Source: Candidatus Anstonella stagnisolia
Lineage (GTDB): Archaea; Micrarchaeota; Micrarchaeia; Anstonellales; Anstonellaceae
Reading direction: 5' to 3'
NCBI GenBank assembly: GCA_902384585.1
Contig: CABMCJ010000004.1
Coordinates: forward strand, 770,086 to 834,085
Length of the DNA: 64,000 bases
Below, piece by piece: positions 1 to 64,000 of this stretch. The position numbers and the translations under genes are program-made. The notes below the pieces were generated by a model. It made no database searches. It was not told the origin of the DNA and was given only the letters and a program-made list of their open reading frames with translations. Each line of letters opens with the position of its first letter. Position 1 is the stretch's first letter.

Positions 1-1481
1 GAAGAGAACTCCTCTGCCTTTGCGTGCAGCCTCCTTGAGATTTGCGGGGAGAATGGGACTTCGCCTTCGGGCGTGAGCAGCTTTTTGCAGCGGGGAAACA
101 TGCATTCGGGCGCGCCTTTTACAAACGAGATTGCTCCATCTGGCATGTTGCGCACCACGCTCATGAGCTTGCGCTCTGAGTCAAATGGGACTTCGCCAAG
201 AAGCTTGTATTCTGTGCGCTCTTCCGCAGCATCTATGCCGGCTTTTTGGGCTGCTATGAGGATTGCGGCTTCTGTCGGGTCGCCTGCAATGCTGGAAAGC
301 TTCTCGCCTTCGTATACAAAGGAGGCGGTATTGCAGAGCGCGCCTATTTGCAATGCTTTTTTTGCAAGCTGCAGGTCACCTTCTTTTTGGGAGGACATTT
401 TGCCTCCTTCAAGGCCTATTCCGTCGAACTCGAATGTTGAGTTTTCAACCCAGAGCCTCGTTACTGTCATGCGGTTTTGGGTAAGGGTGCCGGTCTTGTC
501 CGTGCATATCACGGTTGTGCTGCCCAATGTCTCAACTGCGGGCAATTTCCGCACTATTGCCTTTTGTTTTGACATTGCCTGCACGCCTACTGCGAGGGTT
601 ATTGTAATTATGGTGGGCAGGCCTTCGGGAATTGCGGCTACTGCAAGGGAAATCGCCACGACAAACATCTGGTCTATGGGCTCCGCTCGCAGCACGCCGA
701 ATGCGAAAAAGAGCACGCTGAGCATTATTGCGACTATGCCGATTTTCCTCCCAAGCTCTGCAAGCGAGCGCTGCAATGGGGCCTGCTCCTCCTCTGTTGC
801 GGAAAGCGAGCTTGCGATTTTGCCAAACTCGGTGAACTTGCCGGTTGAGGACACGAGGGCTTTCCCGTGCCCCCGCACCACCACTGTGCCTGCATAGAGC
901 ATGTTGGAGCGCTCTGCAAGCGGGGTGGAAAGCGGGAGCTCTGCAAGGCTCTTGTGCACTGCGTGGGACTCGCCTGTGAGGGAGGACTGGTCTATTGCGA
1001 GGTTTGCGTTTTCAAGCACGCGGCAGTCCGCAGGTATTTTGTCTCCCTCGGAAACAAGCAGGATGTCGCCGGGCACAAGCTCGCGCGCGTCTATGAGCTT
1101 TTCCTTTTTGCCCCGCACAACGAGCGCCTTGGGGTTTGTGAGGCTTTTAAGCGCCGCGAGCGCGCTCTCTGCCTTGTATTCCTGCAGGAAGCCGAAAAGC
1201 ACGCTTATGAGCACTGCAACGCAGATTGCGGACGCGTCTATGCGCTTTCCGACGTAAAATGATAGCGAGGCCGCGAGCGTGAGCATTATGATGAGGGGGT
1301 TGGAGAATTGGGCAACGAATATTTTAGGCCATTTGGGGCCTTCCACTTCAACAAGGATGTTTTTCCCGTATGTGGAGAGGCGCTTTTGCGCCTCATCTGC
1401 AGAAAGCCCGCCTTCGGAGGACTCTGAAATTGACAGCGCCTTGCTTATGGGCACGGAGTGGAAGTGTGCGCTCTCTGCCAT
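1..1481 (-). CDS. P-type cation-transporting ATPase (P2-type, Ca2+/cation-pump-like), N-terminal 493 codons; the 3' end lies beyond the window
   Basis: Open minus-strand frame from ATG 1481..1479 to the window edge. It is absent from the ORF track because it has no stop here. Own translation: MAESAHFHSVPISKALSISESSEGGLSADEAQKRLSTYGKN... It has the actuator motif LTGES and the phosphorylation motif ICTDKTGTLTQN (around 470-520). Plus-strand ORFs 73..897 and 867..1262 are its antisense shadows. Confidence 0.9.
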   Translation of the reverse strand, partial: MAESAHFHSVPISKALSISESSEGGLSADEAQKRLSTYGKNILVEVEGPKWPKIFVAQFSNPLIIMLTLAASLSFYVGKRIDASAICVAVLISVLFGFLQEYKAESALAALKSLTNPKALVVRGKKEKLIDARELVPGDILLVSEGDKIPADCRVLENANLAIDQSSLTGESHAVHKSLAELPLSTPLAERSNMLYAGTVVVRGHGKALVSSTGKFTEFGKIASSLSATEEEQAPLQRSLAELGRKIGIVAIMLSVLFFAFGVLRAEPIDQMFVVAISLAVAAIPEGLPTIITITLAVGVQAMSKQKAIVRKLPAVETLGSTTVICTDKTGTLTQNRMTVTRLWVENSTFEFDGIGLEGGKMSSQKEGDLQLAKKALQIGALCNTASFVYEGEKLSSIAGDPTEAAILIAAQKAGIDAAEERTEYKLLGEVPFDSERKLMSVVRNMPDGAISFVKGAPECMFPRCKKLLTPEGEVPFSPQISRRLHAKAEEFS

Positions 1482-1535
1482 GGAAGGAGAAAGGCAAAGA
1501 AAATTTAAAAGGGAGAGGCTGGAATGCAAAAAACG

Positions 1536-3185
1536 TTATTGGAACTCGTTGAATTCCTTCAGGCTTGTCTGTTTTTTTATTGCGGCGCGCGCCGGGGATT
1601 TTGAAAGGGCTGGCTCGGATTGTTTTTCCGGTGCTTGCGTTTCATGCTGCCGGGGGCTTTGCGCTCTTGCTGCCTCATTCGTTTTTGCTTGCTGTTTTTC
1701 ATAGGATGCGGGCGCTCTTGCTTCCTTTTTTGCCTTTAAAGAGCCTACCCCGTAATCAGCCATCCCCTGCACAAGGGTTTTCATTTTCTTTTCGCGGTTT
1801 TTTGAAGCCCAGTAGAATGCCTCATCGCGCGTCCCTTTTGTGAGGAGCACGAATACCTTGCCTGCCTTTGCGCGCCCTGCGCGCCCGCGCCGCTGTATTG
1901 AGCGGATTTCACTTGGGATTGGCTCGAAAAATACCACAGTGTCTACGAGCGGGATGTCGAGCCCCTCCTCGCCTATTGAGGTTGCTACCATCACGTCGAA
2001 CTCGCCGTTTCGGAAAGCCTCTATTGTGAGCTTTTGCTGCTCCTGGGTGAAACCTTCCTTTTTGCCCATGAAGGTGCGGGAGCGTATTTTGTGCGCAACA
2101 AGCTCCTGCGAAATGTGCTCCACTTGGTTTCTGTACTGCGCAAACACGAGGTATTTTTCTTCTGGCGAGGACTTTATGAGCTCAACAAGAGCTGCAAGCT
2201 TGGGGTGCTCGCCTGCCTCTTCCAAGAGATGCTCGAATTTTGCAAAGCGGTAGTCCTGCAAAAGGCGCGCGCTTGCTTTTGTTTGGGTGCGTGTGCGTAT
2301 TTTTTCTATGTACTTTTTGCAAGTGGAAACGCCTTGGGTTTCAAGAAGCTCAAGGATGTGCACTAAATTAAAGAGGGTGGAATGGTGCGAGAGCGCTGCG
2401 AATCTTCTTCCGCCCTTGTCTGCGAGGATGCGCGCACGAAGTTCTAGGAGGGGTTTTTTTGAGTAGAAGCGGCTGAAAAAGCCCATTCCCTTGAGTTTCT
2501 CTGCCTGCTCTTTTGCCATCTGGTCTGCGATTTCCTTTGCTGCGAGCATCTCTTTTCCAAGCTCTACTGGGATGTAGCGCACATCAAGGGCTTTTACGTA
2601 TTGGGAAATTTTAGGGTCGGATGCATCAAGGATTTGCACGTTTTTTATGAGGAGCGCATCTACGATTTCCTGTATTTTCTTCTTGTTGCCGCCTGGGGAG
2701 GCAGTCAATCCTGCAAGAAGTGCATTTTTTGCGGCTGCGGCTTTTGCGACTAGCGTGTAAGAGTAATTCCCGACTGCGCGGTGCGCCTCGTCAAAAATGC
2801 AAAGGGACGCCCCGTCAAGGGAAAGCCTGCCTGCAAGCAAATCATTCTTTATGCACTGGGGAGTGGAGATTATGATGCGCTTTTTGTAAAGCTCGGCGCG
2901 TTTCGCTGCTTGAATTTTTCCGCTAATGAGCTCGACGTCCTCTGCGGTTGCGCTTGTTTGCGCGAGAAGGGTCTTGAGGTGCTGCTCGCAAAGCGGGCGG
3001 GTGGGCGCGAGAAGGAAGCACCTTCCCTCTTTTGATTTTTGGGAGATGAGGAGGAATGCGATAAGGGTTTTCCCCAAGCCCGTGGGGAGCACTACGAGGG
3101 TGTTGCCGTTTTGGAGCACAGAATTCGCTATCTCAAGCTGGTAGGAACGGGGAGGAAGCTTGAGGGAAATATCTGCGGGTGCCAT
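1536..3185 (-). CDS. SF2 DEAH-box helicase of the Hef/FANCM (ERCC4-related helicase) family; helicase core only, no nuclease domain; low-complexity tail ending in a PIP-like box
   Basis: 549-aa ORF with Walker A VVLPTGLGKT, DEAH box IFDEAHRAVG and motif VI SIQRRGRAGR. The C-terminus is ...KKQTSLKEFNEFQ. Confidence 0.8.
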   Translation of the reverse strand: MAPADISLKLPPRSYQLEIANSVLQNGNTLVVLPTGLGKTLIAFLLISQKSKEGRCFLLAPTRPLCEQHLKTLLAQTSATAEDVELISGKIQAAKRAELYKKRIIISTPQCIKNDLLAGRLSLDGASLCIFDEAHRAVGNYSYTLVAKAAAAKNALLAGLTASPGGNKKKIQEIVDALLIKNVQILDASDPKISQYVKALDVRYIPVELGKEMLAAKEIADQMAKEQAEKLKGMGFFSRFYSKKPLLELRARILADKGGRRFAALSHHSTLFNLVHILELLETQGVSTCKKYIEKIRTRTQTKASARLLQDYRFAKFEHLLEEAGEHPKLAALVELIKSSPEEKYLVFAQYRNQVEHISQELVAHKIRSRTFMGKKEGFTQEQQKLTIEAFRNGEFDVMVATSIGEEGLDIPLVDTVVFFEPIPSEIRSIQRRGRAGRAKAGKVFVLLTKGTRDEAFYWASKNREKKMKTLVQGMADYGVGSLKAKKEARAPASYEKQQAKTNEAARAQSPRQHETQAPEKQSEPALSKSPARAAIKKQTSLKEFNEFQ

Positions 3186-3247
3186 TTTCTCACTGCACCA
3201 ATAATAAGAGCAAAATGGTTAAAAGGTGCAGGAGTTTGGGAGGCTCA

Positions 3248-4978
3248 TCAGGTTTGCGTCTGGAAGCCCATTCTGCTTGCCTGCTGGACTCGTTTGGGCG
3301 GCAGAACTTCGGAAACCTTCTGCGCATTTATCCTAAACAGGATGTTTGTTTTTGCAGGGCCGTCATTAAAGACGAGGTTGGAAAGTTGCGCGTCGAACAC
3401 TTTGTCCACCATGTGGTTGAGCGACCTGCAACCACCGCCTGCCTGCACTGCGCGTTCAGCCAGTGGGGCATATGCATCATCGCTGACTTCAACGTTTATT
3501 CCGAGTGCGTTCATCCTGTTTATGTTTCTTACAAGTGCATTGTCTTTGCCTTCCCTCAGCACCCTTTCCAAATCAGCTTGCCCAAGCTCGCCAAGGGGTT
3601 TTATCGATTCTATCCTGCCTGCCATTTCCTGTGTGAAGCCCACAAGATGGACCAGATCGTTCTGCGAGAGCATGTCAGTCGGCATTGGCTGCACAAACGA
3701 GAGTGAATCCGCGAATATTATCAAGCCGCTAAATGGCAATTCCTGTATTTCGTGCTGCGGCCCGGTTGAAACCGTAAGTTTTGCGCCCGGCTCCACAAGC
3801 TTGAGAAATTCATTTTGCAATTGGAAGGAAAACGAATCGTTCTGCGAGCCTTTTTGGAGTATTTTGGCAAATTCATCGAAATAAAATATCATCCTGTTTG
3901 GATAGCCCCCGCATTTTTCTATCATTGCCGTGAGCTTTGTGAATAGCAAATCTGAAACATTCACCCCTTTGTAACCTGATGCCGTGAAATTTGGGGAGGA
4001 AATCTCGGAAACAGGTATGCCTGAAATTGAGGAAATAATGCGGATTGAGAGGGTTTTGCCGCTTCCTGTGGGGCCGGAGAGCAACAAAGGGTGGGATTGC
4101 GCAGAAGGGTCGGCTATGTATTTGGCAATTTTTAGCACGATGCTTTTCAATTGCTCGTCTTGGGCAATCACGCTCTGCCTTACGGAAGTGTAAAGCCCTA
4201 GGCAATAATCGCTGAATGCTGCGAAATTGCATTGCAGGGAAGCCGCCATGCCGTTTGTAACGTCCACAAGGGGCAGGTTTGGGGGAAGTTCGGGCTGCTC
4301 AACGCTGCCTTTCTCAGCGCTTGTTTGGGGCGAGGCTGCTGTGATTGCCATGGGCGCGTGCTTGCGGACTATGGCCATGCGTGTTTGTTCATCAGGCAGG
4401 TTCAGGCAGATATCCTGTGCTAAATCACGGGTTGTCATTTTGCCGTTCAGCGTGTCGAATATGCTATCCACCAGGGTGTATTCCGTCCCTACCTTGGTAT
4501 TTCTGCAGATTTCGTAGAAAGAGCCTTTTTTATAAAAAAAATCAGCCAGCAAGCGGGCGTCAAGTTCCATGCTCTCGGGCATTACCGCCACGCAGACTTT
4601 TGCAAGGTCAAGGAGCAAGCCGACTGGCATGAGGTTTTTGCTAGTGGGGGGCGAAATGCTGTTTCCGCGGAATTTAAAGTGGTACTCCGGTTCATCTTCG
4701 CTATCAACTGATTTGACCAGTTCGAGCATGTGTTTTCTGCCTGAAGCAAATGGCAACGTTTCGTGTATGCTGTTTAATGGCACGAATTTCTCGTATATTA
4801 AGTAATAGATATAATCGATATAGTCGCGCTGGTTGAAAAATGTTGGCAAATTGTTAAGGTTATCCATGGCACCGGAGGACCTCATCAGCATCCTGAGGAA
4901 TTCATAGTCAAAATGAAAATAGCTGGGCGGGGATGCTGATGCCGGATTATTGTCTCTTTTAACCATTTGTATCAACAT
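3248..4978 (-). CDS. ClpX-like AAA+ ATPase with an unrecognised ~280-aa N-terminal domain
   Basis: 576-aa ORF. The C-terminal half tracks ClpX by eye. Walker A is LLLSGPTGSGKT; SGYKGVNV sits at the GYVG pore-loop position; Walker B is MIFYFDEFAKI. GRIESIKPLGELGQADLERVL matches ClpX GRLPV..L.EL....L, and GGGCRSLNHMVDKVF matches ClpX GARGLRSI. There is no N-terminal zinc-binding domain. The segment where the ClpP-docking IGF loop would sit looks too short. Confidence 0.7.
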   Translation of the reverse strand: MLIQMVKRDNNPASASPPSYFHFDYEFLRMLMRSSGAMDNLNNLPTFFNQRDYIDYIYYLIYEKFVPLNSIHETLPFASGRKHMLELVKSVDSEDEPEYHFKFRGNSISPPTSKNLMPVGLLLDLAKVCVAVMPESMELDARLLADFFYKKGSFYEICRNTKVGTEYTLVDSIFDTLNGKMTTRDLAQDICLNLPDEQTRMAIVRKHAPMAITAASPQTSAEKGSVEQPELPPNLPLVDVTNGMAASLQCNFAAFSDYCLGLYTSVRQSVIAQDEQLKSIVLKIAKYIADPSAQSHPLLLSGPTGSGKTLSIRIISSISGIPVSEISSPNFTASGYKGVNVSDLLFTKLTAMIEKCGGYPNRMIFYFDEFAKILQKGSQNDSFSFQLQNEFLKLVEPGAKLTVSTGPQHEIQELPFSGLIIFADSLSFVQPMPTDMLSQNDLVHLVGFTQEMAGRIESIKPLGELGQADLERVLREGKDNALVRNINRMNALGINVEVSDDAYAPLAERAVQAGGGCRSLNHMVDKVFDAQLSNLVFNDGPAKTNILFRINAQKVSEVLPPKRVQQASRMGFQTQT

Positions 4979-5076
4979 ATATATTTGTTATGAAAAGTTT
5001 AAAAAGATATAACATTAGTCCCACATTTATTCTTTCGCAGGGAAAGTATTTTATCCTGCATCTCCAATATAGTGCC

Positions 5077-5712
5077 ATGAACACTACCACGGTTGGCGGA
5101 GTGAAAATCACTTTTTTTGGGCATGCGAGCTTTACGCTGGAGGGAAACGGCGTGCTTGTTGCAGTTGACCCGTTCGCGCCCATGCATTTGCAGCACCCCG
5201 CGGACGTTGTGCTGCACACGCACAACCATTTTGACCATTGCGATGAGGAGAAGACTGAGAAAGTGTCTAAATTCAACACTGTGCTAATCGGCACGAACTG
5301 CAGGCATCCGTGTCGGCTTCTGAAAATAGGGGAGAGCATAAAGGTCGGGGGAATCGGGATACTTGCCGTGCCTGCGTACAACGTTGGGAAGCCATATCAC
5401 GCGCGGGATGCAAATTGCGCGGGGTATATCCTTGCGTTTGGGACTACGAGGATTTACGTTGCAGGTGACACGGACGAGATACCTGAGATGGAAAAATACA
5501 AGTGCGATGTTGCGCTTTTGCCAATTGGGGGCACGTACACCATGGACGCTGCAGCTGCTGCAAGGGCGTGCGCGAAAATAAACCCAAGGATAGCGATACC
5601 TGTGCACTATGGGTACCTTGATGAAACAAAGGGGGATGCAATACTCTTTAAGCAGCTTGTGGAAAGGGAAACTGCTGGAAAAACAGAAGTAAGAGTGCTG
5701 ACGCCTGCCTAG
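5077..5712 (+). CDS. MBL-fold metal-dependent hydrolase (UPF0173-like)
   Basis: ORF 4990..5712. Start moved to ATG 5077 (MNTTTVGGVKITFFGHASFTLEG...). HTHNHFDHCD metal-binding motif. A paralog lies at 48565..49227. Confidence 0.75.
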   Translation: MNTTTVGGVKITFFGHASFTLEGNGVLVAVDPFAPMHLQHPADVVLHTHNHFDHCDEEKTEKVSKFNTVLIGTNCRHPCRLLKIGESIKVGGIGILAVPAYNVGKPYHARDANCAGYILAFGTTRIYVAGDTDEIPEMEKYKCDVALLPIGGTYTMDAAAAARACAKINPRIAIPVHYGYLDETKGDAILFKQLVERETAGKTEVRVLTPA

Positions 5713-5746
5713 CTGCAGTTCTTTTTCCCATTGGGCGGGCAGATGC

Positions 5747-6268
5747 CTAATTGCCGTTGTTCTTTTTCTTTTTCTCGTCAGCCTCGGGCATTGTGTGAAC
5801 TCCGGGCTCTTTCGCAAGGAGCGCGGCGAATTTGCCTGCCTTTTTCTCATCTGTGATGTGGGACTGCACGACTTCGCCGAATACTACGGTGTGGTCCATG
5901 GAATAGTTCACGTAGGAAACGACTTTGCACTCAAGGTTCGCGGCTGCCTCAAGGACTAGCGGGGCTGCGACTTTTGTTGCTTTTAAGGGAGTGAGCTTGG
6001 ACTCGGAAAACTTGTCAAGGAATTTTCCTGAGGTGCTTGCGCAAAGCTCAACTGCCTGCGCGCAGCGCTCGTCTGGGAGCGCAACCACGAACTCCTTTGA
6101 GCGGCTTATCAAATCAAGGGTGAGCCCGTTGTTTGTGAGCGCGACTGCGAGCATTGGGGGCTTGCGCGAAACAGGCATGCTCCATTACACTGCGGTAACG
6201 TTCACGCGCTCGTTGTGGCAGCTCGTTATGAGCACGTATGGGCGGGGGTAGAAGAGTTTCCAGAACAT
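5747..6268 (-). pseudogene. Flavin reductase-like / flavoredoxin-like (FMN-binding split-barrel) gene interrupted by an in-frame TAA at 6185..6187; the downstream part (5747..6178) is an intact 143-aa ORF
   Basis: An ATG at 6268 preceded by AAAGGTGAACAC (GGTGA RBS) opens the same frame as ORF 5747..6178. The translation reads MFWKLFYPRPYVLITSCHNERVNVTAV*WSMPVSRKPPMLAVAL... The stop sits inside the conserved N.(M/T).(V/A).W....(E/K)PP..AV.L block of this family. Confidence 0.6.
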
Positions 6269-6280
6269 GTGTTCACCTTT

Positions 6281-7021
6281 TTAGTTCAGGCTTTTGTAAA
6301 AGAGCGCAAGCGCGCTCATTAGCACGGGCGCGAGCACGAACATGTTCACTATTGGGATGAAACCAAGCACCAGGGAAAGCACCCCGAAAAGTATTGTGAA
6401 GATTATGCACTGCACTATGTTGCGGGTAACGAGCTTGAGCGAGTGGCTGAGGGCGCCAAGGGGCGTTGCCTTGTCAATTGCCGCCGCAGGGAAGCAGAAC
6501 ATGAAGAAGAACTTCACAAGCGCCATGAGGAAGAGCCCGCAGGCCAGGAGGGCTGCGCTTATGAGCACGTTCTTTGTGAGCGCAAATGCGAGCAATGCAG
6601 GCATTAGGAAAATGCCGAAAATTGCGCACAGGATGAGCATGAGGATGAGGAACCTGCCGCCGTTCTTTATGCCGTATTCTATCATGCCGAGGATTGTCGG
6701 GACCTTGCCAGTTGCGATTGAATAGCAGGCATTAAGGTATGCGCCTATGCCTGAAGAGACGAAAAATGCCTGTATTATGAACACTGCGAGCATCCAGACG
6801 CCGAATATTATTGCAACCAGCGGGCTTGAGATGAGCGTTTGCGCAACGTCCCCGCCTGTTGAGATTGCCCCAAGGGCGAGCATGGAAAGCGCGAAAAGCC
6901 CGAAAGGAAGCCCTATTGCGACAAGCATCCAGATGAAATACACAAGCGAAGAGAGCAGGTATCCGACGATATTTTTGGAGTATGAGGAAAATGCGCCCTT
7001 TATTGAAGTTAATGCAGCCAA
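6281..7021 (-). CDS. Polytopic membrane protein, function unknown
   Basis: 246-aa ORF with about 6 hydrophobic helices. Its stop lies 12 nt upstream of the next gene's start, so it looks like an operon. Confidence 0.5.
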   Translation of the reverse strand: MAALTSIKGAFSSYSKNIVGYLLSSLVYFIWMLVAIGLPFGLFALSMLALGAISTGGDVAQTLISSPLVAIIFGVWMLAVFIIQAFFVSSGIGAYLNACYSIATGKVPTILGMIEYGIKNGGRFLILMLILCAIFGIFLMPALLAFALTKNVLISAALLACGLFLMALVKFFFMFCFPAAAIDKATPLGALSHSLKLVTRNIVQCIIFTILFGVLSLVLGFIPIVNMFVLAPVLMSALALFYKSLN

Positions 7022-7079
7022 GCCATCACCAACCGCATTGAACTGTCTAAAGTTAAAAATCTAACTGAGGAATAGAATC

Positions 7080-7961
7080 ATGGCGGATTTGGGGGGTTTT
7101 GTAAATGAAAATTTCGTGCAGCCCATAGCGGAACGCACGGGCTACAACGCCGTAAACACGCTCGCGTATGCGGCAATTGCGATTTTGGGGCTGTACGCGG
7201 TCTATAGGGTGTTTCGGGCAAGGGAAGTGAAATTCGACTCCCATTTCGTATCTACGCTGCTTCTTTTTGTACTGCTTGGAAGCACGGTCAGGGTAATCAC
7301 GGACTCGGTGGACTCCGGAGTGCTGGAATACAGGTTCGCATATGAAACAAACGAGGCGGTTGCGCACGCGCTTTATTTTGTGCTTAATTCGCACATCTAT
7401 GATTATGGGATGCTCACGGTTACGCCGGGCATTTATGTTGTGATAGCGCTCTTGTTTGTGTGCACTGTGCTGCTGTTCCACGAGATGCGCATAATGAGGC
7501 TTGCGAAATACGTGCCTGCGATGCTGCTTGCGCCAAATTTGCTGCTTGCGCTTGCGCTCGGGGTGAATTGGGCGTATGCCGCGCTTATTTTGGCGCTTGC
7601 GGCAGTTGCATATTTTGTCGTGAAACTTGCGTTTGGGGCGCTTAAGGTTGAAATGCCATTTTTGGGCAAACTTGCAGTGTTCTCGCAGGCGCTTGATGGG
7701 GCTGCGACTTTTGTTGCAATAGACTTGTTCCCAAAGGGCGCGTATTTTGAGCAGCACGTCCTTTCGAGGGCACTTGGGGGCACTGAGTTGGGGTTTGGAT
7801 TGTTTTTTGCGCTCAAAGTGCTGCTTGCTGCTGGCGCAGTGTACATAGTTGGCAGGGAAAAGGCAAAGCAGGAGGAAAAGGACTTTATATTGTTGGCTGT
7901 AATTGTAATGGGGCTTGCCCCGGGCATGCGGGATTTGCTGCGCCTGCTTATTGGGACTTGA
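7080..7961 (+). CDS. Archaeal integral membrane protein, DUF63-like
   Basis: 293-aa multi-TM ORF. The N-terminus FVNENFVQPIAERTGYNAVNTLAYAAIAILG resembles the DUF63 family as I remember it. Confidence 0.55.
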   Translation: MADLGGFVNENFVQPIAERTGYNAVNTLAYAAIAILGLYAVYRVFRAREVKFDSHFVSTLLLFVLLGSTVRVITDSVDSGVLEYRFAYETNEAVAHALYFVLNSHIYDYGMLTVTPGIYVVIALLFVCTVLLFHEMRIMRLAKYVPAMLLAPNLLLALALGVNWAYAALILALAAVAYFVVKLAFGALKVEMPFLGKLAVFSQALDGAATFVAIDLFPKGAYFEQHVLSRALGGTELGFGLFFALKVLLAAGAVYIVGREKAKQEEKDFILLAVIVMGLAPGMRDLLRLLIGT

Positions 7962-7983
7962 GGGGCACTTAGAGGGTGTTGGG

Positions 7984-8568
7984 ATGGTGGAAATTGCACT
8001 TGAGGCGATTTTGAAATCTCTTATTGCGTTTTTTGTCATAATGGACCCTTTTGCGTCCCTTCCGGCGTTTTTGGCGCTCACGAAAAAGATGAATGAGGTG
8101 CAGAGGGCGCAGGCTGCGTTTACTGCGACGGTTGTTGCCGGGGGCGTGATAATCGGATTCGCCCTTGTCGGGGTGCAGCTTTTGGGGGTGCTTGGAATAA
8201 GCATGCAGAGCTTCCAGATTGCAGGAGGGCTGCTGCTGCTCCTTACTGCGATACAAATCACGTTTGGGATAAACTTCGGGAAAGAAGAGAAAAGCGCGCC
8301 AAACGTTGCGATTGTGCTTATAGGGGTGCCGCTCCTTGCAGGGCCGGGCGCAATGACAACTGCGGTGCTGCTTACGGGCGCGGATGGGATTTTGGTAGTG
8401 GTGATTGCGGCGCTTGCGGCAACTGTGCTGTCGTACGTGATATTGATGTGCGCAAGCTTTATTGGGAAAATCCTTGGGGCGCGGGGGATGGAAATATCCT
8501 CAAGGCTCATGGGAATACTGCTTGCTGCAATCGGGGTTGAATTCATAAGGATGGGGTTGGGGGGCTAG
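7984..8568 (+). CDS. MarC family (UPF0056) integral membrane protein
   Basis: Start moved to ATG 7984 with a GAGGGTG RBS 7 nt upstream. It carries the family motif FFVIMDPFASLPAFLALT and about 6 TM helices. Confidence 0.75.
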   Translation: MVEIALEAILKSLIAFFVIMDPFASLPAFLALTKKMNEVQRAQAAFTATVVAGGVIIGFALVGVQLLGVLGISMQSFQIAGGLLLLLTAIQITFGINFGKEEKSAPNVAIVLIGVPLLAGPGAMTTAVLLTGADGILVVVIAALAATVLSYVILMCASFIGKILGARGMEISSRLMGILLAAIGVEFIRMGLGG

Positions 8569-8579
8569 GGGGTGCTCGT

Positions 8580-9461: not shown

Positions 9462-9468
9462 GGGAACC

Positions 9469-10008: not shown

Positions 10009-10066
10009 GAAGGGAAGGCTCGGTTAAGGTTTATTATCGTTTTGAGGCAGGGGAGGGCTGTTTGGG

Positions 10067-10074: not shown

Positions 10075-10106
10075 CTGTTTTTGCCACAATAATGGTACAG
10101 ACTGGA

Positions 10107-15237: not shown

Positions 15238-15238
15238 G

Positions 15239-54060: not shown

Positions 54061-54068
54061 AAATTTCC

Positions 54069-54833: not shown

Positions 54834-54844
54834 TTTCAAAACCC

Positions 54845-56503: not shown

Positions 56504-56557
56504 TTCTTTCCCTCTCTCTTTTTATTTTTTCTTGCCATACTATACCCAGTGTAACTT

Positions 56558-56755
56558 ATGATAGAGATCGCAGCGCGCTATATTTTGCTTCTGGCAGTCG
56601 CATTCCTGCTCTGGCAGCTTATAACCAACCAAGACATGAACGCGCGCTTTGTTTGCGCGCTTTTGCTCATACTTGCGGGGCAGTTGCGCGAAATATTGCT
56701 GCTTAGGCAGGCATCAGTCCACACGAAAACGCAAAATTCAAAGGTGAAACACTAG
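56558..56755 (+). CDS. Possible small two-helix membrane protein (65 aa)
   Basis: A TTTTTATTTTTT element lies 25-35 nt upstream (leaderless-type). It has two hydrophobic segments. A nested hairpin plus T-tract follows the stop. Confidence 0.3.
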   Translation: MIEIAARYILLLAVAFLLWQLITNQDMNARFVCALLLILAGQLREILLLRQASVHTKTQNSKVKH

Positions 56756-56937
56756 GACGATAGAACAGAAAAGAAGGCCAGCGCGCGAAGCGCTGGCAAG
56801 GCGACCAGTTTTCTGTCTTTACGACAGAACAAAAGACGGAGATCTGCGTCACTATTTCGTTGGCTTGATATATAAACATTTGCGAAGGATTATCCACACA
56901 CTGACACACATTTATAAATGAAAAAAGGAGTGAAAGC

Positions 56938-57852
56938 ATGGCAGAAAATACGAATGAAACCCCAATCGCGCAGCAAAAGCAAACGCAGCAAAAACAAAAC
57001 GAAAATGCCATGCAAAAAGATGCGCCAGAAACTGCGCACCAAAAGCAGGCTGAAAATGCGCAGAAAAGCGCGCCCGCTTCGCAAAAAGATGCGCAAAAAG
57101 AGCAGGAAAAAACGCAGCCCGCTGCGCAAAAGCCCTCTTCCCAAAAGGAACTTTCCCTTCTCATGCAACTAAAGGCTCAAAAAGACGCGCTTCTGGAAGA
57201 GGCGAAAGCGCTCAACCCCAAACTTTCCGCGCTTCGCGCCCAGCTTGCACCGCTTGCAGCCGAGCTCAAGAGCGCAAAAGGCTCAAATTCCTCGCGCCTG
57301 CGCTCGCAGATTGACGAAATAGAATTCAAGATAGCGACCGAGGCGTTTACCTCAAAACAGGAAAAGGAGCTCATAAAAAGCAAAAAAGTGCTTGAGGAGC
57401 AGCTCAAAAGCGCATCCGCGGCCGACACGCTCTACAAAAAGGCATCCGAGCTTCGCGCGCAGCTAAAGCCGCTTTCTCAGCGGCGCGACGAAATAGACGC
57501 ACAGCTTGATTCGCTTCGCTACCAGATGTCCGCGGAATACGAGAAAACAAAAACCGAATACGAAAAAGGCAAAAAAGACCGCGAGAAACGCGCTTACGAA
57601 TCCCTGAAAGCCAGATACGGAAAAAAAGATACAGGCAAAACAGCCGGTGCTCCAAGTGCAAAAGAAGGCTCCACAAGCTCACGCCCAGAACGCCGCGATT
57701 TTGGCCGCAAACCCCATCGCGAAAAGCTTGATGCCGACGAGGCAAAATACCTCAAAAAGCACGACGATTTCGTGTCCCTTGAGGACATCGTAATAATGGA
57801 GAAAAAGGAAAAGAAGGAAGAAAAGGAAGAGGCGCAGGAAGGCAGTTCTTAA
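56938..57852 (+). CDS. Coiled-coil protein with a Gln/Lys/Ala-rich N-terminus (COG1340-like archaeal coiled-coil protein)
   Basis: An AAGGAGTGA RBS lies 6 nt upstream and a TTTATAAAT box lies upstream of that. Heptad-like segments occur throughout. Confidence 0.55.
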   Translation: MAENTNETPIAQQKQTQQKQNENAMQKDAPETAHQKQAENAQKSAPASQKDAQKEQEKTQPAAQKPSSQKELSLLMQLKAQKDALLEEAKALNPKLSALRAQLAPLAAELKSAKGSNSSRLRSQIDEIEFKIATEAFTSKQEKELIKSKKVLEEQLKSASAADTLYKKASELRAQLKPLSQRRDEIDAQLDSLRYQMSAEYEKTKTEYEKGKKDREKRAYESLKARYGKKDTGKTAGAPSAKEGSTSSRPERRDFGRKPHREKLDADEAKYLKKHDDFVSLEDIVIMEKKEKKEEKEEAQEGSS

Positions 57853-58598
57853 TTTTTAACCCCAAGCAGCGCCCCAACAGCATATCCTGCGATTCCCGCA
57901 AGCCCTCCAATCATGAGCATCTCAAGCCCGCTCTTGAACCAGTTCCCAATAGTTATTTTCGCTTTTATTGCACCTGCAGCGAATAGCGTGAGCAGCGAAA
58001 TCCCAGCAGCCATGAGCATGGCAAGCTGCACGTCCCCTATGAGCACAAACGGCACAAGCGGTATAAGCGAGCCTGCAAAAGACGAAATGCCTACCACAAG
58101 CCCCTCCCTTCTCGGGTTTATGTCCTTCACATCCCCAAACCCTAGTTCCTCGTTCATCATCACATCCACCCAAATTTTCTCGTCCGATGTGATGTGCTTC
58201 ACAACATCTGAAAGCGCCTTTCCCCGAAAGCCCTTCTTGTAATAAATGAGCTCGACTTCCTTCCTCTCAATCTCAGGCACTTCCTTTACTTCCCGCTTTT
58301 CGCGCGCAAGCTCTGCATGATAGTGGTCCTCTTCAGCCCTTGAGGACGTATATGCAACAGCCGCCATTGAAAGCGATTCCGCAAACGTTGCTGCAATCCC
58401 GGCAACAATAATTATCTGCGAATCCTTTGTTGCGCTCGCAACGCCCAGCACAAGCCCGAGCACGTTCACAAGCCCGTCCTGGCCTCCCAATATTATCTGG
58501 CGCAGCAGCACCCCCTTGTTCCCCCCTTTTGCATTTTCGCCGTAAATGTGCTTCTGCTCCCTCTCAGTAAGAATTAACGGGTCGTATTCTCCATCCAC
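57849..58598 (-). CDS. VIT1/CCC1 family iron/manganese transporter
   Basis: ILGGQDGLVNVLGLVLGVASA is present, followed by a central cytoplasmic helical domain and 5 TM helices. Confidence 0.8.
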   Translation of the reverse strand: MDGEYDPLILTEREQKHIYGENAKGGNKGVLLRQIILGGQDGLVNVLGLVLGVASATKDSQIIIVAGIAATFAESLSMAAVAYTSSRAEEDHYHAELAREKREVKEVPEIERKEVELIYYKKGFRGKALSDVVKHITSDEKIWVDVMMNEELGFGDVKDINPRREGLVVGISSFAGSLIPLVPFVLIGDVQLAMLMAAGISLLTLFAAGAIKAKITIGNWFKSGLEMLMIGGLAGIAGYAVGALLGVKN

Positions 58599-58664
58599 AA
58601 TATCACCGATTTGTTATGTAATTCCACCTTCCCTTTTTATTAAGTTTGCTTGCGCCGGATATTT

Positions 58665-61049
58665 ATGGTTTTGAGAAAGGCATTCCTGCTTGATGTAGAC
58701 TACACACACAAGAAGGGCAAGACGTACGTGCGCCTGCTGCTCAAGGGAAAGCACACCTTCCGCCTGTACGATTCCTACGAGCCCTATTTCTACGTTGATG
58801 CGCCCGAATCCGAAAAAGAAAGCATAATGAAAATCTCCCTTGAGCACAACGGGGAAAAAATCGCCCCGGTGCGCGTTGAAACCGCGCACAAAACCGTTTT
58901 TGGGAAAGAAAAAAAGCTACTAAAGGTTTTCTGCTCCTCCCCCTCACACGTTCCCCACATTTCCGCAAAAATACAGCATCCTGTATTTGAAAACAACATC
59001 CTTTTCGGCAGGCGCTACATGATAGACAAAGGGCTCTCGCCCTTCTCGCTTCTCATATACGAACGAGATGGAAAATTCCTCAAAAAAATTGTGAAAGTAA
59101 AGGACGGAATTCCCAAGCTCAACTCGCTCGCATTCGACATAGAAACCTACAACCCAATAGGCGCGCCCCGCCCGGAAAAGGACCCTGCGATAATGATAAG
59201 CTACGCAAACGGGATGCAGGGCGTGCTCACTTACAAAAAAATAAACAAGCCCTTTGTGCTTGCGAAAAAATCCGAGGCCGAAATGATTTCCTCTTTCTGT
59301 TCCGTGCTGAACGAAACAGACACGGACATACTTTTCGGCTACAATAGCTCCAATTTCGACCTTCCCTACCTCCAAGCGCGCGCGGATGCGCTCAAAATAA
59401 AATTCCCAATAGGGCGCGACAAGCGCTCTTTCATTCTCCGCAAGGCAGGCATGCGCGAAATGGCAAAGATAGGCGGAAGGGTGCACATAGACCTCTACCC
59501 CGCAATCCGCTTCCTATCTTTCATAGGCGCGCTCAAGGCATCCAAGTTCACCCTCGAAGCCGCATACTCTGAAATAACCGGCAAGCAAAAATACATGGTA
59601 AAGCGGCTCGAAATCCACCAGATGTGGGACAGCAAGGACGAGGCGGTGCGCGAGGAGCTTGCCCACTATTCAATGCAGGATTCCATTGCAACAAAGGAGC
59701 TCGGCGCGATTGTTCTCCCGCTTCTTATGGAAATAAGCCGCCTCACAAAAATGCCCCTCTTTGACACCGCATACGCAACCGCTGGGCAGCTCGTGGAATC
59801 CCTCCTGATATACCGCTCATACGAGGCAAACACAATCGTCCCCCCAAAACCAACTGACATGCAGGCAAAGGAGCGCGAGGCGCACCCGATAGAGGGTGCA
59901 TTCGTAAAGCTCCCCACAGCCGGCATATACGAGAACATCGCAGTATTTGACTTCCGCGGCCTGTACCCCTCCATAATTACCTCGCACAACATAGACCCCT
60001 ACACGCTCAACTGCTCCTGCTGCACAAAGGCTGAAAGTTTTGTTTCGCCCCTTGGGCACCGCTTCTGCAAAAAGAAAAAAGGGCTCATCCCGACCGTGCT
60101 TGGCGACGTGGTCGCAAAACGCGCAGCGCTTAAGGACAAGCTCAAGCACGTGCAAAAGGACACAGAGGAATACCGCACGCTCTTTGCAAGGGTGCAGGCG
60201 CTCAAGATAATCGCCAACTCCTACTACGGCTACCTCGCGTACGCGCGCTCGCGCTGGTACGCGCGCGAGGCAGGCGAGTCCGTAACCGCGTGGGGCCGCC
60301 ACTACATCCAGGAGACAATAAAGAAAGCAGAAGATGCAGGCTTCCAAGTGCTCTACGGCGACACAGACTCTGTTTTCCTGCTCTTAGGAAAAAAAGGAAA
60401 AGAAGACGGGCTCGCATTCATGAAAAAAATAAATTCCGAGCTCCCCGAGGGAATGGAGCTTGAGCTTGAGGGCTTTTTCAAGCGCGCGGTGTTTGTCTCA
60501 AAAAAAGGCGGCGAGGCAGGCGCAAAGAAAAAATACGCAATGCTTGGCGAGGATGGGCGCATAAAAATCCGCGGCTTCGAGCTCGTACGGCGCGACTGGT
60601 CCTCAGTTGCAAAAGACACGCAGCGGAAAGTGCTCGAGGCAATACTTGTGCACGGCAGCAAGGAAAAGGCGGTCGGGATTGTACGCGACGTTGTGGAAAG
60701 ATTGCGAAGCGGAAAAGTCCCACTTGAAGAACTCGCAATTTACACCCAGATAAGCAAGGACCCAAAAAAATACGAAATAACCTCCCCCGAAATTTCAGCC
60801 GCAAAAAAAGCAATAGCGCGCGGGGTGCACGTTGAAAAGGGTAGCATAATCGCATTTGTAATCTCAAAGGGCGGCTCCACGATTTCCGAAAAGGCAACTC
60901 CCCTTGAGTTCGCAACAAACTACGATGCCCAGTACTACATAGACCACCAGATACTTCCCAGCGTGCTGAAAATACTCAAGGAGCTCGGCTTTTCCGAGGA
61001 CGATTTAAAATTCAAAGGGACGCAAAAAGGGCTCGAGCATTTCATGTAG
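58665..61049 (+). CDS. polB: Family B DNA polymerase with a C-terminal PIP box
   Basis: Exo I is LAFDIETY, motif A is DFRGLYPSII, motif B is KIIANSYYGY and motif C is YGDTDSVF. The C-terminus is ...GTQKGLEHFM. Confidence 0.95.
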   Translation: MVLRKAFLLDVDYTHKKGKTYVRLLLKGKHTFRLYDSYEPYFYVDAPESEKESIMKISLEHNGEKIAPVRVETAHKTVFGKEKKLLKVFCSSPSHVPHISAKIQHPVFENNILFGRRYMIDKGLSPFSLLIYERDGKFLKKIVKVKDGIPKLNSLAFDIETYNPIGAPRPEKDPAIMISYANGMQGVLTYKKINKPFVLAKKSEAEMISSFCSVLNETDTDILFGYNSSNFDLPYLQARADALKIKFPIGRDKRSFILRKAGMREMAKIGGRVHIDLYPAIRFLSFIGALKASKFTLEAAYSEITGKQKYMVKRLEIHQMWDSKDEAVREELAHYSMQDSIATKELGAIVLPLLMEISRLTKMPLFDTAYATAGQLVESLLIYRSYEANTIVPPKPTDMQAKEREAHPIEGAFVKLPTAGIYENIAVFDFRGLYPSIITSHNIDPYTLNCSCCTKAESFVSPLGHRFCKKKKGLIPTVLGDVVAKRAALKDKLKHVQKDTEEYRTLFARVQALKIIANSYYGYLAYARSRWYAREAGESVTAWGRHYIQETIKKAEDAGFQVLYGDTDSVFLLLGKKGKEDGLAFMKKINSELPEGMELELEGFFKRAVFVSKKGGEAGAKKKYAMLGEDGRIKIRGFELVRRDWSSVAKDTQRKVLEAILVHGSKEKAVGIVRDVVERLRSGKVPLEELAIYTQISKDPKKYEITSPEISAAKKAIARGVHVEKGSIIAFVISKGGSTISEKATPLEFATNYDAQYYIDHQILPSVLKILKELGFSEDDLKFKGTQKGLEHFM

Positions 61050-61064
61050 TTACATTTGATGCAG

Positions 61065-61916
61065 CTACATTCTCACTATGAGCATGAGCACGTCCCCAAA
61101 GAAAAGCGTGATGAGCAGCCCAAGGAGAATATGGGGCAAAAACGGCGGCATTTTCGTATACACGCAGTATTTTTTTAGCGGCAGTTTTGCAAGCCTTGCA
61201 AGTTCCTTTGAATCCGCAACCCTTCTCAAGTTGTATTTTTTCACAACTGACTCGTCCATGTACTCAAGCGCAATTACGTCTTCTTCCTCTATTTTTGAGA
61301 ACGGGACCTCCTCCACCATCATCCTTGCAATCCGATTCTTGAACAAGAGGAAAAACAGGGAAACAAAAACAACAAACCCGACAAGCACAAAATACGCTGG
61401 CCCAAACACGCCGTTCTTCCCGGCAACATACACGAAAACCGCATACGCAGCCGCAACCAAAACCGCCCCAAGCGCAGTCTTTGCGTCCACTTTCATCTTT
61501 TCCCTTCTCGCATCCCTTACTGCCCTCGCGCCGTAAAACGCAAGCATGTACAGCATAAAAGTTATCCCCGACGCCGCAATAACGGAGAACACATACGGAT
61601 ACGGCGCAGGCGCAACGTTTGCAAACACCGTGGGCTGCACAGGAAGCAAAAGCGCTATTGCGCTCAGGATGTACACGTCCGCGCCTCCAAGCTGCCCTGC
61701 CCTATAAAGCAAATACCCAGCAACAAAAATCGCAATTGCAACAGCGAAAGCAAGCAGGCTTCCCTGCCCCCAAAACACCAAATCGAAGAGCACCCCGAGC
61801 GCAAGCATCGCATACAAAAGGATATTCGGAATATTCCGGTTGTTCCTCAAATCATAATATGCGCCCGCAGCGCATCCCGCAATTGCTATCAAAACCCGTG
61901 CCAGTTCAAATTCCAT
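61065..61916 (-). CDS. A24-family prepilin/preflagellin peptidase (PibD/FlaK/EppA-like) with an extra C-terminal soluble region
   Basis: The first catalytic Asp context is GAYYDLRNNRNIPN and the second is GQLGGADVYIL. About 6 TM helices are followed by an ~80-aa hydrophilic segment and a final TM helix. Confidence 0.75.
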   Translation of the reverse strand: MEFELARVLIAIAGCAAGAYYDLRNNRNIPNILLYAMLALGVLFDLVFWGQGSLLAFAVAIAIFVAGYLLYRAGQLGGADVYILSAIALLLPVQPTVFANVAPAPYPYVFSVIAASGITFMLYMLAFYGARAVRDARREKMKVDAKTALGAVLVAAAYAVFVYVAGKNGVFGPAYFVLVGFVVFVSLFFLLFKNRIARMMVEEVPFSKIEEEDVIALEYMDESVVKKYNLRRVADSKELARLAKLPLKKYCVYTKMPPFLPHILLGLLITLFFGDVLMLIVRM

Positions 61917-61941
61917 GCCCCCACCGCCTTAAACTGATTCC

Positions 61942-63126
61942 TCATATTACTGTTTTCAAAAATTCATCATGTATCTTTATAACGTCAAGCTGCCTGCATG
62001 CAGCCTTGCATCCCAGCACGAGCGCAATGCTGGGTTTTGTCCTCCCCTCATCCGAGCTTGCGAACTCCTTCACGTACGTGCCCGCATCAGTTTTCAGATG
62101 CACCCTAAGGAGCCCGCCTTCCACTTTCGCCCCAAGCAAATACACGTTCCTTTTGCGCGCCAAATCGCTTCTTCTATGCAGCACCCTCGTGGGAGTCTGC
62201 TGCACAAGCTCCACAAACCCCCCTGAAAACATTTTTTGCATCTTCTCCACGTCGCTCTCCAATGCATCCCGCTGCAAATCCACGAGCATGTCATACTCCT
62301 TTTCAAAGTGGGACGTGCACACGATTTCAATCGCATTCTTGTTCGTTGCCTTAACGCCGCCCACCTTTATTTCTTTCCCGGCGTTCAGTTCCTTTTCAAA
62401 ATTCCCTCTTCTCTTTTTTGGCGAAATTACCTCAAGCACGAACGGCCTGCCGCTTCCCTTCATGCACACGTCCACGTCCTCCCTCCCGCTCGCATGCAGT
62501 GACGCATCCGTTGCCCCAAAAACCTTTTTCGCAGCCTCGCGCATGACATCCTCAATCGCAACATACATCCTTCCAGTCCCGTTGCATTTTGCGCATAAGG
62601 CCCCTCTTGCCTTACCGCTCCCGTTGCATTCATTGCAGCCCCAGCTGCTCTGCGCCATGCTCCTTGAGAATTTGCAGTAATGCCCAAAAAGATAAAGCGG
62701 CGCAGCACTCGCGCTTCCCTTCCCCTTAAGGAAATCAACTGAAAAAAGCGCATCGGGGTTTTTCGCGTCCATTTTTTTCCCAGTCCGTTTTTCTATTTCC
62801 GCAGCCGCAGCACGGTTCACGACGTTCTTTATGCACATGCATTTTTCCGGTGCGCACACATCAAAAAGCTCCTCTTCGCGCGCAAAAATTTCCCGCTGCA
62901 TGCTGCTGCTCACTGCAAACGTTTCCCACTCAAATCCTTTGGACTGCAAAATTGCCTCATCCAAAAGCTGCCCCATTTTTGCAAAAACCCCCCTGCACAA
63001 AAAGCATTTTTCATCCGCCACCCTCAGTATTTTTTCATGCGCAGCAGCGCAGAATTTGCAAATGCCTGTTTTTTCCATATTCCCAATCCCCTTCTTCCCC
63101 GTGTCGGCGTTGATATGGGTGAGCAT
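61942..63126 (-). CDS. pus10: tRNA pseudouridine-54/55 synthase Pus10
   Basis: The N-terminal zinc motif is CKFC...CFLCRG and the catalytic block is SGREDVDVCMKGSGRPFVLEV. An alternative start is ATG 63078. Confidence 0.85.
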   Translation of the reverse strand: MLTHINADTGKKGIGNMEKTGICKFCAAAHEKILRVADEKCFLCRGVFAKMGQLLDEAILQSKGFEWETFAVSSSMQREIFAREEELFDVCAPEKCMCIKNVVNRAAAAEIEKRTGKKMDAKNPDALFSVDFLKGKGSASAAPLYLFGHYCKFSRSMAQSSWGCNECNGSGKARGALCAKCNGTGRMYVAIEDVMREAAKKVFGATDASLHASGREDVDVCMKGSGRPFVLEVISPKKRRGNFEKELNAGKEIKVGGVKATNKNAIEIVCTSHFEKEYDMLVDLQRDALESDVEKMQKMFSGGFVELVQQTPTRVLHRRSDLARKRNVYLLGAKVEGGLLRVHLKTDAGTYVKEFASSDEGRTKPSIALVLGCKAACRQLDVIKIHDEFLKTVI

Positions 63127-63287
63127 ATTTAAATGTTGCGCTCATAAAAATTTCCAGCAACGGCGGGAGGCTGTGTTGCCCGAAATACCAAAAGGCTTAT
63201 AAATAAGTTGTGGTCTAAAATAGTAATATTATGGTTATAAGCATTTTGGCAGCACGCGCGACCAGCATAGTTGCCAAAGGTGATTTA

Positions 63288-64000
63288 CATGCCACGCGGA
63301 AAGCGAATAGTAATTGAAAAGAAAATAAAAGACCCCGTGATAGGGAAGCTCAAAGGGATTACCATAGACAGCCTCGGCTCTGCGCGCGGCGAGGTTGCAG
63401 ACACTCTCAACGAATCAATCGAGAATATCGTTTCACAGGCAAAGTCCCTCTACGAACAGGACAAGCTTGAGAAAGAGCGCCTGAAAAGCCTTGGGCTTTT
63501 CACGCTCGAAGAGGCATACGACGAGCTCAAGAAAGGAGGCGTAAACCTCTCGTTCCGCGCATTCGGCGGCCGCGTAGAGCGCCGCTCAGTCCGCTCCGAG
63601 AAAATCGGCAAGAAGCGCCTCATTCCCAAACCCGTTATCCACGACTGGGTTGCGCTCAACAAGGATTTCTATTCAGTAAAGCAGGCGTACAAGGAGCTTG
63701 CAAAAGTAGAGAAGCTCAACCTTCGTGCCTTTATCGGCAGGATAGAAAAGCGCTCAATGCCAAGCATAAAAATCGGCACAGCGCGCTGGGTCCCCAAATC
63801 CGCGGTTGAAGCTCTCGTTCACGTGAACAAGAACTACTACTCAGTGGGGAACGCAGTGGGCGTGCTCTCTGCAAAGGGCGTGAAAATAAAGCGCAATGCA
63901 TTTGAGCGCAGGCTTGACCGCAACCGCATCCCGCACGAGAAAATCGGCGGAAAGCGCATGATTGCAAAAGAAGTGATGGACGAGCTCATCCAGAAGGAGC
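63288..64000 (+). CDS. Protein with three tandem excisionase/MerR-type HTH (HTH_17-like) repeats; 3' end beyond the window
   Basis: ATG 63288 has an AAAGGTGA RBS. It is not in the ORF track because it has no stop in the window. Own translation: MPRGKRIVIEKKIKDPV... Three ~55-aa repeats each end in KIG(K/T/G)(K/A)R(L/W/M)(I/V)(P/A)K..(I/V/M)...(V/I). Confidence 0.6.

Follow-up and report, generated by a model that had tools for sequence, protein, structure and literature searches.

Described archaeal chromosomal origins are laid out as inverted origin recognition boxes (ORBs) around an AT-rich spacer (PMC3528665, PMC6742236), and GT-stretches have been noted after the boxes (PMC1868953). A leading strand rich in G and T is the rule in bacteria, eukaryotes and Pyrococcus (PMC1868953), and skew in Thermococcales peaks sharply at oriC but broadly at the terminus (PMC2958812). 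Archaeal genomes have generally been reported to show weak skew that tracks gene orientation (10.1101/2023.11.15.567178). A replication-linked skew switch at a specific cis element is, as a kind of feature, known. Here we describe such a switch in a 64,000-nt stretch of the genome of Candidatus Anstonella stagnisolia (contig CABMCJ010000004.1, positions 770,086 to 834,085 of the forward strand; hereafter the window), where a 240-nt non-coding spacer at 32303..32542, the switch element, separates two compositional arms. We found no paper in the searchable literature on the skew, origin, terminus or replication map of Micrarchaeota. New here are an orientation-independent skew of bacterial strength in an archaeal phylum, a composite box-spacer-palindrome-spacer-box element, and a conflict of origin-like anatomy with terminus-like polarity and a dif-like core.

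The original prediction held that skew polarity inverts at about 32.4 kb, and the measurements agree with it. Plus-strand GC skew in 2-kb windows lies between +0.05 and +0.36 over 1-32 kb and between -0.04 and -0.40 over 33-64 kb, with the cumulative GC-skew maximum of the window at ~32-33 kb. At a resolution of 200 nt, values of +0.39/+0.48 at 32.1-32.4 kb give way to -0.33/-0.58 at 32.5-32.8 kb, the reversal of sign being completed within ~200 nt. Amplitude is greatest immediately beside the switch site, and the skew is uniform for >30 kb on either side. When the window was cut into 500-nt blocks, 63/64 were positive to the left of the switch and 58/63 were negative to its right, and the observed cumulative excursion was 12.1, compared with a mean of 2.2 and a maximum of 5.7 in 10,000 block permutations.

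Such a pattern could arise with no link to replication if gene-orientation bias were combined with the composition of coding strands, which carry G at first codon positions. Genes near the switch do converge, coding strands are G-rich at first positions, the skew of Haloferax volcanii pHV3 is essentially of this kind, and the general claim for archaea (10.1101/2023.11.15.567178) points the same way. We computed third-position skew by side and gene strand, using improved gene calls. To the left of the switch its plus-strand value is +0.29 in + genes and +0.22 in - genes, and to the right -0.23 in + genes and -0.33 in - genes; the sign is the same for both gene strands on each side and flips between sides. 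The strand that is G-rich at third codon positions is T-rich there as well, so that, at the neutral sites of genes on either strand, G and T are enriched on the plus strand of the left arm (1..32302) and C and A on that of the right arm (32543..64000). The non-coding arms of the spacer have the same polarity as the third positions and a higher amplitude, and the coding length pointing toward the site is nearly equal to that pointing away from it in the window (28.9 vs. 27.8 kb). Skew separated by gene orientation, named beforehand as the check on the prediction, does change sign near 32.4 kb. The orientation-separated third-position skew refutes a gene-orientation artefact for the window, and we give that account very little credence overall. 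We conclude that the asymmetry is set by position and not by gene orientation, as had been predicted, and that it is a strand asymmetry of bacterial strength with an abrupt and significant change of sign.

The consequences extend to codons and proteins. Genes whose coding strand is the G-rich one use GGG for 54% and GGC for 25% of their Gly codons, and AGG for 54% and CGC for 17% of their Arg codons, versus 20%, 62%, 12% and 68%, respectively, for genes on the C-rich strand, in agreement with the codon split between strand classes that had been noticed earlier. Proteins of the first class contain more Gly (9.6% vs. 6.3%) and Val (7.9% vs. 5.4%), and those of the second are enriched in Leu, Ser, Pro and Thr. 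Among the spot counts given in the original prediction, those for 8521-8580 (G26/C8) and 59941-60000 (G8/C23) were reproduced exactly, and that for 45721-45780 is G9/C26 rather than G8/C26; of the gene identities on which it relied, those of prs, ino1, cysS, tmk, DRG, a Hef-like helicase, pyrD, an M42 peptidase, a RecJ-like protein, RNase Z, pheS and polB were upheld by Pfam. The locus shares with bacterial strand asymmetry an orientation-independent third-position skew of bacterial strength, the split in codons and amino acids, and symmetric inversions around the switch. It differs in belonging to an archaeal (DPANN) lineage with eukaryote-type replication proteins, in which the leading strand could be either one. 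We also observed antisense "shadow" open reading frames (ORFs) of up to 497 aa opposite real genes, at 7053-8546 (-), 45483-46349 (+) and 53548-54384 (+), with negative G skew at first positions and odd amino-acid composition. These long shadow ORFs follow from the strong skew, and naive calling by longest ORF chooses the wrong strand there.

The switch element itself is intergenic and AT-rich, as expected of a DNA-unwinding element (DUE): its GC content is 21-25% (0.25 for 32300-32499), against 51% for the window, and as a whole it makes up a long imperfect palindrome. As single-stranded DNA the spacer can form one long hairpin (z = -4.66). An Rfam scan of the spacer matched no family except the adjoining tRNA, and a structured RNA in the spacer was rejected as a candidate. 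Near its ends lie two ORB-like inverted boxes, one on the long-arm side at 32313..32337 (+; AGAGAGGGCACACTTCCACTATTTT) and one on the short-arm side at 32492..32516 (-; AAAATAGTGGAACTATGCCCTCTCT on the plus strand). The inverted repeat AGAGAGGGCAnnnTTCCACTATTTT is a unique pair with 25-nt arms that are 92% complementary and 154 nt apart, for which 0 matches are expected by chance. From left to right, the boxes enclose a GT-rich arm (32338..32433, +), a central palindrome (32434..32449) and an AC-rich arm (32450..32491, +). The GT-rich arm has TTGTT-type tracts (A10 C3 G18 T49 in an 80-nt stretch) and is a candidate DNA-unwinding element. The 80 nt that begin 10 nt to the right of the palindrome center and run through the right box have the opposite composition (A39 C15 G5 T21). 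The palindrome is perfect over 16 nt, TGTAAC-TATA-GTTACA (TGTAACTATAGTTACA), and is the place at which the composition flips.

To see how widely this arrangement occurs, we used the adjoining gene for geranylgeranyl diphosphate (GGPP) synthase as a query and recovered 25 loci of Candidatus Micrarchaeota among the GTDB species genomes, the closest of them 68% identical; a metagenome scan with the palindrome and one box yielded 38 further loci. The palindrome is conserved as (A/T)TGTAAC-YATR-GTTACAT (core TGTAACYATRGTTACA) and is single-copy in 16/25 of the genome loci; none of the 55 Bacteroidota loci that the same scan retrieved contains it. It is almost invariant, Y and R being the only variable positions of the core, occurs once in every locus sequence examined, and almost always sits at the skew maximum. 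That maximum falls 300-700 nt downstream of the GGPP synthase gene in ten of the relatives, with the same spacer architecture, and coincides with the palindrome despite different neighboring genes at loci L006, L012 and L015. Nearly all of the 38 metagenome loci are skew-positive on the left and skew-negative on the right, and in most relatives the third-position skew is orientation-independent and of the same polarity, with a magnitude of about 0.03-0.3. In a profile pooled over 43 loci, GC skew is +0.10 to +0.64 and AT skew -0.13 to -0.53 between -70 and -30, and GC skew is -0.30 to -0.71 between +10 and +30, which places the change from G+T-rich to A+C-rich at the palindrome with a precision of ~20 nt. 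The AC-rich arm stays AC-rich in loci whose right-hand gene points away. We rejected the idea that promoters or terminators alone produce the T|A asymmetry, given that persistence of the AC arm and a bacterial-type scan that returned no more than background.

A join of unrelated or inverted sequence at 32.4 kb was the other artefact to consider. Several assemblies do break at or near the element, which shows that the palindrome is hard to assemble. The junction of the PRC-barrel gene with the initiator tRNA-TFE-Trm56 block, together with its polarity, nevertheless recurs in dozens of independent assemblies from various studies and habitats, and the skew is homogeneous over >30 kb on each side. 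An assembly chimera or recent inversion is refuted by recurrence in 54 independent loci, which removes this scenario from among those that the original prediction had named against itself; its residual probability is, in our estimate, negligible. The switch is a conserved property of the lineage, seen in 16 genome and 38 metagenome loci, and not that of a single assembly. The earlier claim of a replication-type switch is fully borne out, since third-position skew flips for genes on both strands and the same flip occurs at the same conserved element in these loci. We read the switch as a fixed landmark of chromosome replication in Candidatus Micrarchaeota.

Some of the related loci depart from the common arrangement. 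Six assemblies (L019, L089, L093, L102, L106 and L112) end within ~300 nt of the element, as would be expected if assemblers break at a 200-nt palindrome able to form a hairpin, and such breaks could matter for the completeness of Micrarchaeota genome bins. One clade has different flanking genes, namely an NAD(P)HX-dehydratase-like kinase, a KaiC/RecA-like ATPase and a membrane protein (L100 2950-6420; L116 740-2500; L118 275-1240); the tRNA is 1-3.5 kb away in this clade, and the element and polarity are nevertheless retained. At L012, from a low-GC relative (6537-7160), the locus is flipped, with tRNA-Met on the left, and one box lies ~450 nt from the palindrome, not ~45-85 nt.

The boxes are better defined in the relatives than in the window. 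Across 83 distinct boxes the invariant part reads ATTA-NN-GGAA-(G/C)T-NN-GGGG, with the G-run distal to the spacer; the left box takes the form CCCC-NN-AC-TTCC-NN-TAAT and the right box TAGTGGAAGT-NN-GGGGGTCT, again with a distal G-run, and the two sides of the element carry distinct conserved variants. The tRNA-side box lies at +43 from the palindrome center and the other box at -80 to -84; both distances, as well as their total, come close to whole numbers of helical turns. The boxes oppose the local skew, having a C-run on the G-rich side and a G-run on the C-rich side, and because they run counter to it they must be kept in place by selection. The G-run had been predicted from the ORB idea before the relatives were inspected, at a time when only the window boxes, which do not have it, were in hand, and was then found in the relatives. 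In the window and in L001 (boxes at 6477-6501 and 6658-6684), from the two most strongly skewed genomes, both boxes carry CCCTCTC where the distal G-run would be, a sequence that goes with the local skew rather than against it. Boxes of this type may be eroding, or else the binding protein has changed its specificity.

We slightly favor, over a terminus, the reading of the 240-nt spacer as an Orc1-type chromosomal origin of ORB-DUE-ORB layout in which the polarity of neutral-site skew is reversed; on the evidence below it is a little more likely than not. An Orc1/Cdc6-type initiator would bind the two inverted GGAA...GGGG boxes as equivalents of ORBs and would load MCM onto the AT-rich spacer between them. 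Leading-strand synthesis would then begin near the central palindrome, which may have a role of its own in the process, and run outward on T-rich templates, with forks leaving the site rather than meeting there. If the element is an origin, the leading strand would be C- and A-rich, and strand-specific mutation pressure in this lineage would be opposite in sign to the bacterial, eukaryotic and Pyrococcus rule.

One argument for an origin is the anatomy itself, a box / AT-rich spacer / box arrangement whose boxes are inverted and, in the relatives, end in distal G-runs. GGAA and a G-run are shared with the euryarchaeal ORB consensus, GTTCCAGTGGAAAC-AAA----GGGGG (PMC1868953). The Orc1/Cdc6 origins of Sulfolobus (oriC1), Pyrococcus (oriC) and H. 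volcanii (oriC1 and ori-pHV3) resemble the element in having inverted repeats, each with GGAA at its core and a G-run at its distal end, an AT-rich spacer of ~130 nt, GT-stretches after the boxes, a sharp skew inflection and replication genes nearby (PMC1868953, PMC3528665, PMC6742236). The validated ori-pHV3 in particular has repeat cores proximal and G-strings distal to its AT-rich patch, as well as a 100-nt GT-rich tract of the TTGTT type, which the GT-rich arm of the Micrarchaeota element resembles. The ~20-nt precision of the flip counts for an origin, given the sharp oriC peak of Thermococcales. So do the conserved informational genes nearby (the large subunit of replication factor C [RFC-large], RecJ/GAN, TFE, initiator tRNA and PRC-barrel, with PolB at 26 kb). 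Genes leaving the site are far longer than those facing it (window medians 422 vs. 252 aa, p=0.0017; all genome loci p=6e-8), and this bias fits long genes being co-directional with forks that leave the site and short genes preferring the G-rich coding strand.

Several observations weigh against the origin reading. By the usual polarity rule, the cumulative skew maximum at the element means that forks converge there, the polarity being opposite to that of Pyrococcus. The immediate flanking genes always converge on it, namely PRC-barrel (42/42 loci where found), TFE (42/42), Trm56 (39/39) and the tRNA where called, and by count ~60% of genes face the element. Divergent genes, by contrast, border the H. 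volcanii origins that have been described (PMC1868953). The element has two boxes only, and these share the ORB consensus incompletely: the heptamer AGTGGAA is present in just 21/83 (25%), the window's own boxes are without the G-run, and the spacing from GGAA to the G-run is 4 nt, shorter than the 9 of the euryarchaeal consensus (PMC1868953). The most conserved part of the element is its invariant, dif-like central palindrome. Origins are not known to us to need one. The spacing from GGAA to the G-run in crenarchaeal ORBs, ~5-6 nt, is likewise longer than that in the boxes.

The original prediction had also called for orc1/cdc6 to be located. None was found within 32 kb in the window or in ~700 kb in total at 54 related loci by P-loop scans, Pfam or tblastn with H. 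volcanii Orc6 (no match better than E=0.05), and the AAA+ candidates proved by Pfam to be RFC-large, SRP54, FtsY and ClpX-like proteins. This too tells against an origin, and it sets the element apart from the Orc1/Cdc6 origins listed above, although the adjacency of orc1/cdc6 to archaeal oriC is usual rather than universal.

A reversed polarity would have a possible precedent in haloarchaea, whose origins sit at skew maxima with a C-rich leading strand (Norais et al., Hartman et al.; PMC1868953, PMC2841640); a preprint also reports for archaea a negative correlation between the excess of genes on the leading strand and the excess of G at third positions and in non-coding DNA (10.1101/2023.11.15.567178). 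The haloarchaeal case is alike in having its cumulative maximum at an ORB-type element, and we reproduced this on pHV3 (200 kb), where total GC skew is inverted at +0.025 to the left and -0.022 to the right of ori. Third-position skew on pHV3 follows the gene strand (about -0.2 on the coding strand), not the side of the origin, and genes up to 100 kb to either side of ori show no bias in co-orientation or length. Once orientation is controlled, + genes differ between left and right by -0.007 +/- 0.015 and - genes by +0.039 +/- 0.013, which offers the origin reading no help. We rejected the haloarchaeal inverted skew as a mechanistic precedent, since gene strand explains the pHV3 skew and the residual is not significant. 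pHV3 is a precedent for origins at skew maxima, not for reversed mutational bias: its skew is weak (+/-0.02) and tracks gene strand, unlike that of the window, which is ten times stronger and independent of gene strand.

The main competing explanation, less probable in our judgment but a serious contender, is that the element is a terminus with a dif-like site for dimer resolution by XerA. Polarity would then be normal, with G+T-rich leading strands meeting at the element; the flanking boxes would be accessory or fork-arrest sites, and the origin would lie about half a genome away beside orc1/cdc6. This polarity agrees with a near-universal rule (PMC1868953), and a G-rich strand that is also T-rich at third positions is the classical signature of leading-strand deamination. 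The convergence of the flanking genes wherever they were found suits a terminus, for which the ~60% of genes facing the site would be co-directional with forks, and so does the lack of orc1/cdc6 within 32 kb in the window and at the 54 related loci; in a Diapherotrites genome, the skew-predicted origin adjoined cdc6 (PMC5905446). Archaeal dif sites have been reported at a skew inversion, flanked by AT-rich sequence and inverted repeats (PMC2958812), and those of Thermococcales and M. stadtmanae share such flanks with the element (PMC2958812, PMC4640148).

The palindrome itself can be read in dif style. It is intergenic, single-copy and almost invariant across 54 genomes, and read as 11-6-11 it contains TAA-N6-TTA, with the variable Y and R falling in the putative 6-nt spacer. 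In the window, the arms of GTTTATTGTAA-CTATAG-TTACATAATAA are 7/11 self-complementary, and their inner 6-7 nt are invariant across loci. In our own alignment to the published Thermococcales dif, TTTAGATATAA-TCAGCC-TTATATCTAAA (PMC4640148), 13/22 arm positions match, where ~7.5 are expected by chance in AT-rich DNA. The element shares with the Xer/dif sites of bacteria (XerCD) and Thermococcales (XerA) a highly conserved, near-palindromic core with TAA-N6-TTA, single-copy in the locus sequences examined and placed intergenically between convergent genes at a skew switch of terminus polarity. It is unlike them in its incomplete arm match, in a conserved length of ~18-20 nt rather than 28, in its ORB-like flanking boxes, and in a spacer that is much richer in AT, and more structured, than the surroundings of known dif sites; it is a candidate site to which no recombinase is linked.

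A terminus, for its part, requires archaeal termination to be precise to ~20 nt. We know of no archaeal fork trap. Termination is broad in Thermococcales (PMC2958812), and in Sulfolobus it takes place away from dif (as cited in PMC4640148). The inner arms read GTAA/TTAC instead of ATAA/TTAT. No tyrosine-recombinase motif pair was found in ~700 kb of flanks, which is weak evidence against a terminus given that xer genes are usually unlinked to dif; no integrase or integrated element was found at the palindrome, and this candidate was dropped. A terminus also leaves unexplained the ORB-like boxes with their distal G-runs, the 21% GC spacer with GT-stretches, and the conserved RFC-large/GAN/PolB neighborhood, and it would place long genes preferentially head-on to the forks, contrary to the pattern reported for bacteria by Omont & Kepes 2004 and Price et al. 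2005.

The terC fork trap of Bacillus subtilis, in which RTP binds the inverted repeats IRI/IRII, offers a partial parallel, having two inverted protein-binding repeats tens of nucleotides apart at a skew maximum. It differs from the element in that the composition here flips at the center and not at the boxes, a position that a fork trap formed by outer boxes would not be expected to produce, and in that the Micrarchaeota boxes resemble initiator sites. To our knowledge, neither RTP nor Tus has a homologue in archaea. A first site-specific archaeal terminus, with initiator-like boxes flanking a dif site, seems to us less likely than not. The balance between origin and terminus turns mainly on the weight given to the ORB-like boxes and on the prior for a universal skew polarity. 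Of the two outcomes that the original prediction had offered, a terminus of usual polarity and an origin of reversed polarity, both have been sharpened, with the origin slightly ahead.

The genes next to the element are largely constant. On its left, the polyprenyl (GGPP) synthase gene (30919..31944, +; PF00348, E=7e-69) is a conserved neighbor that points toward it; a homologue is present in 38/54 loci, 31 of them oriented toward the element, at a median distance of 525 nt. The PRC-barrel gene (31952..32302, +; PF05239) abuts the element and faces it; over the loci that have it, the median distance is 205 nt. On the right, an initiator-type tRNA-Met (32543..32617, -; called by ARAGORN, with 63 bits to the Rfam tRNA family) abuts the element and is transcribed toward it. 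It has the initiator features A1:U72 and a GGG/CCC anticodon stem. The tRNA is directed toward the element in 9/9 relatives with an ARAGORN call, the flipped locus L012 included, and a conserved fragment of it lies within 4 kb of the palindrome in 40/47 loci. In L001 (~6700-6860), L003 (~11597-11715), L004 and L009, the tRNA-Met carries a 35-75-nt insertion in the region of the T arm and is not called by ARAGORN; the insertion is possibly a non-canonical intron. Next come the genes for TFE (TFIIE-alpha; 32659..33297, -; PF02002) and the aTrm56 tRNA methyltransferase (33328..33927, -; PF01994, E=1e-48), both facing the element.

Genes of replication lie farther to the right and point away. A RecJ/GAN-like DHH nuclease of a replisome-associated family (34217..35647, +; Pfam DHH_CID, DHHA1 and DHH) has homologues that point away in 5/6 loci where found. 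RFC-large (37363..38859, +; Pfam AAA, RFC1/5 lid and Rad17) has homologues ~4.5 kb from the element that point away in 18/19 loci and occur on either side, to the right in the window and L001 and to the left in most other relatives; this change of side is a signature of symmetric inversions around a replication landmark. A family B DNA polymerase (58650..61049, +; Pfam DNA_pol_B, E=6e-64, plus an exonuclease domain) also points away and lies at a distance of 26 kb. The neighborhood showed no mobile elements, and rRNA genes, sought as markers of fork direction, were found in none of the loci. At the right end of the window, an ORF at 63271-63999 (+) that starts MPRGKRIVIEKK has internal repeats and no Pfam match; three of the more distant relatives have homologues that begin ~1 kb downstream of their GGPP synthase gene (L012 ~11955, L013 and L025 ~11910).

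In practical terms, the palindrome and its boxes provide a simple landmark by which Micrarchaeota assemblies can be oriented and checked, a defined locus at which growth rate can be estimated from read depth, and defined DNA substrates for binding tests with Orc1 and XerA. Either resolution of the conflict would be new, giving either an archaeal origin with reversed mutational polarity or an archaeal terminus defined to the nucleotide. That Micrarchaeota replicate bidirectionally from an Orc1-type origin unlinked to orc1, with a C+A-rich leading strand and a skew amplitude like that of the most skewed bacteria, is in our view evenly balanced. If a reversed-polarity origin is indeed present, the sign of replication-driven mutational skew would not be universal, and the reversal would point to a cause specific to this lineage, for example an exposed leading-strand template, the error spectra of its polymerases or the loss of a repair pathway.

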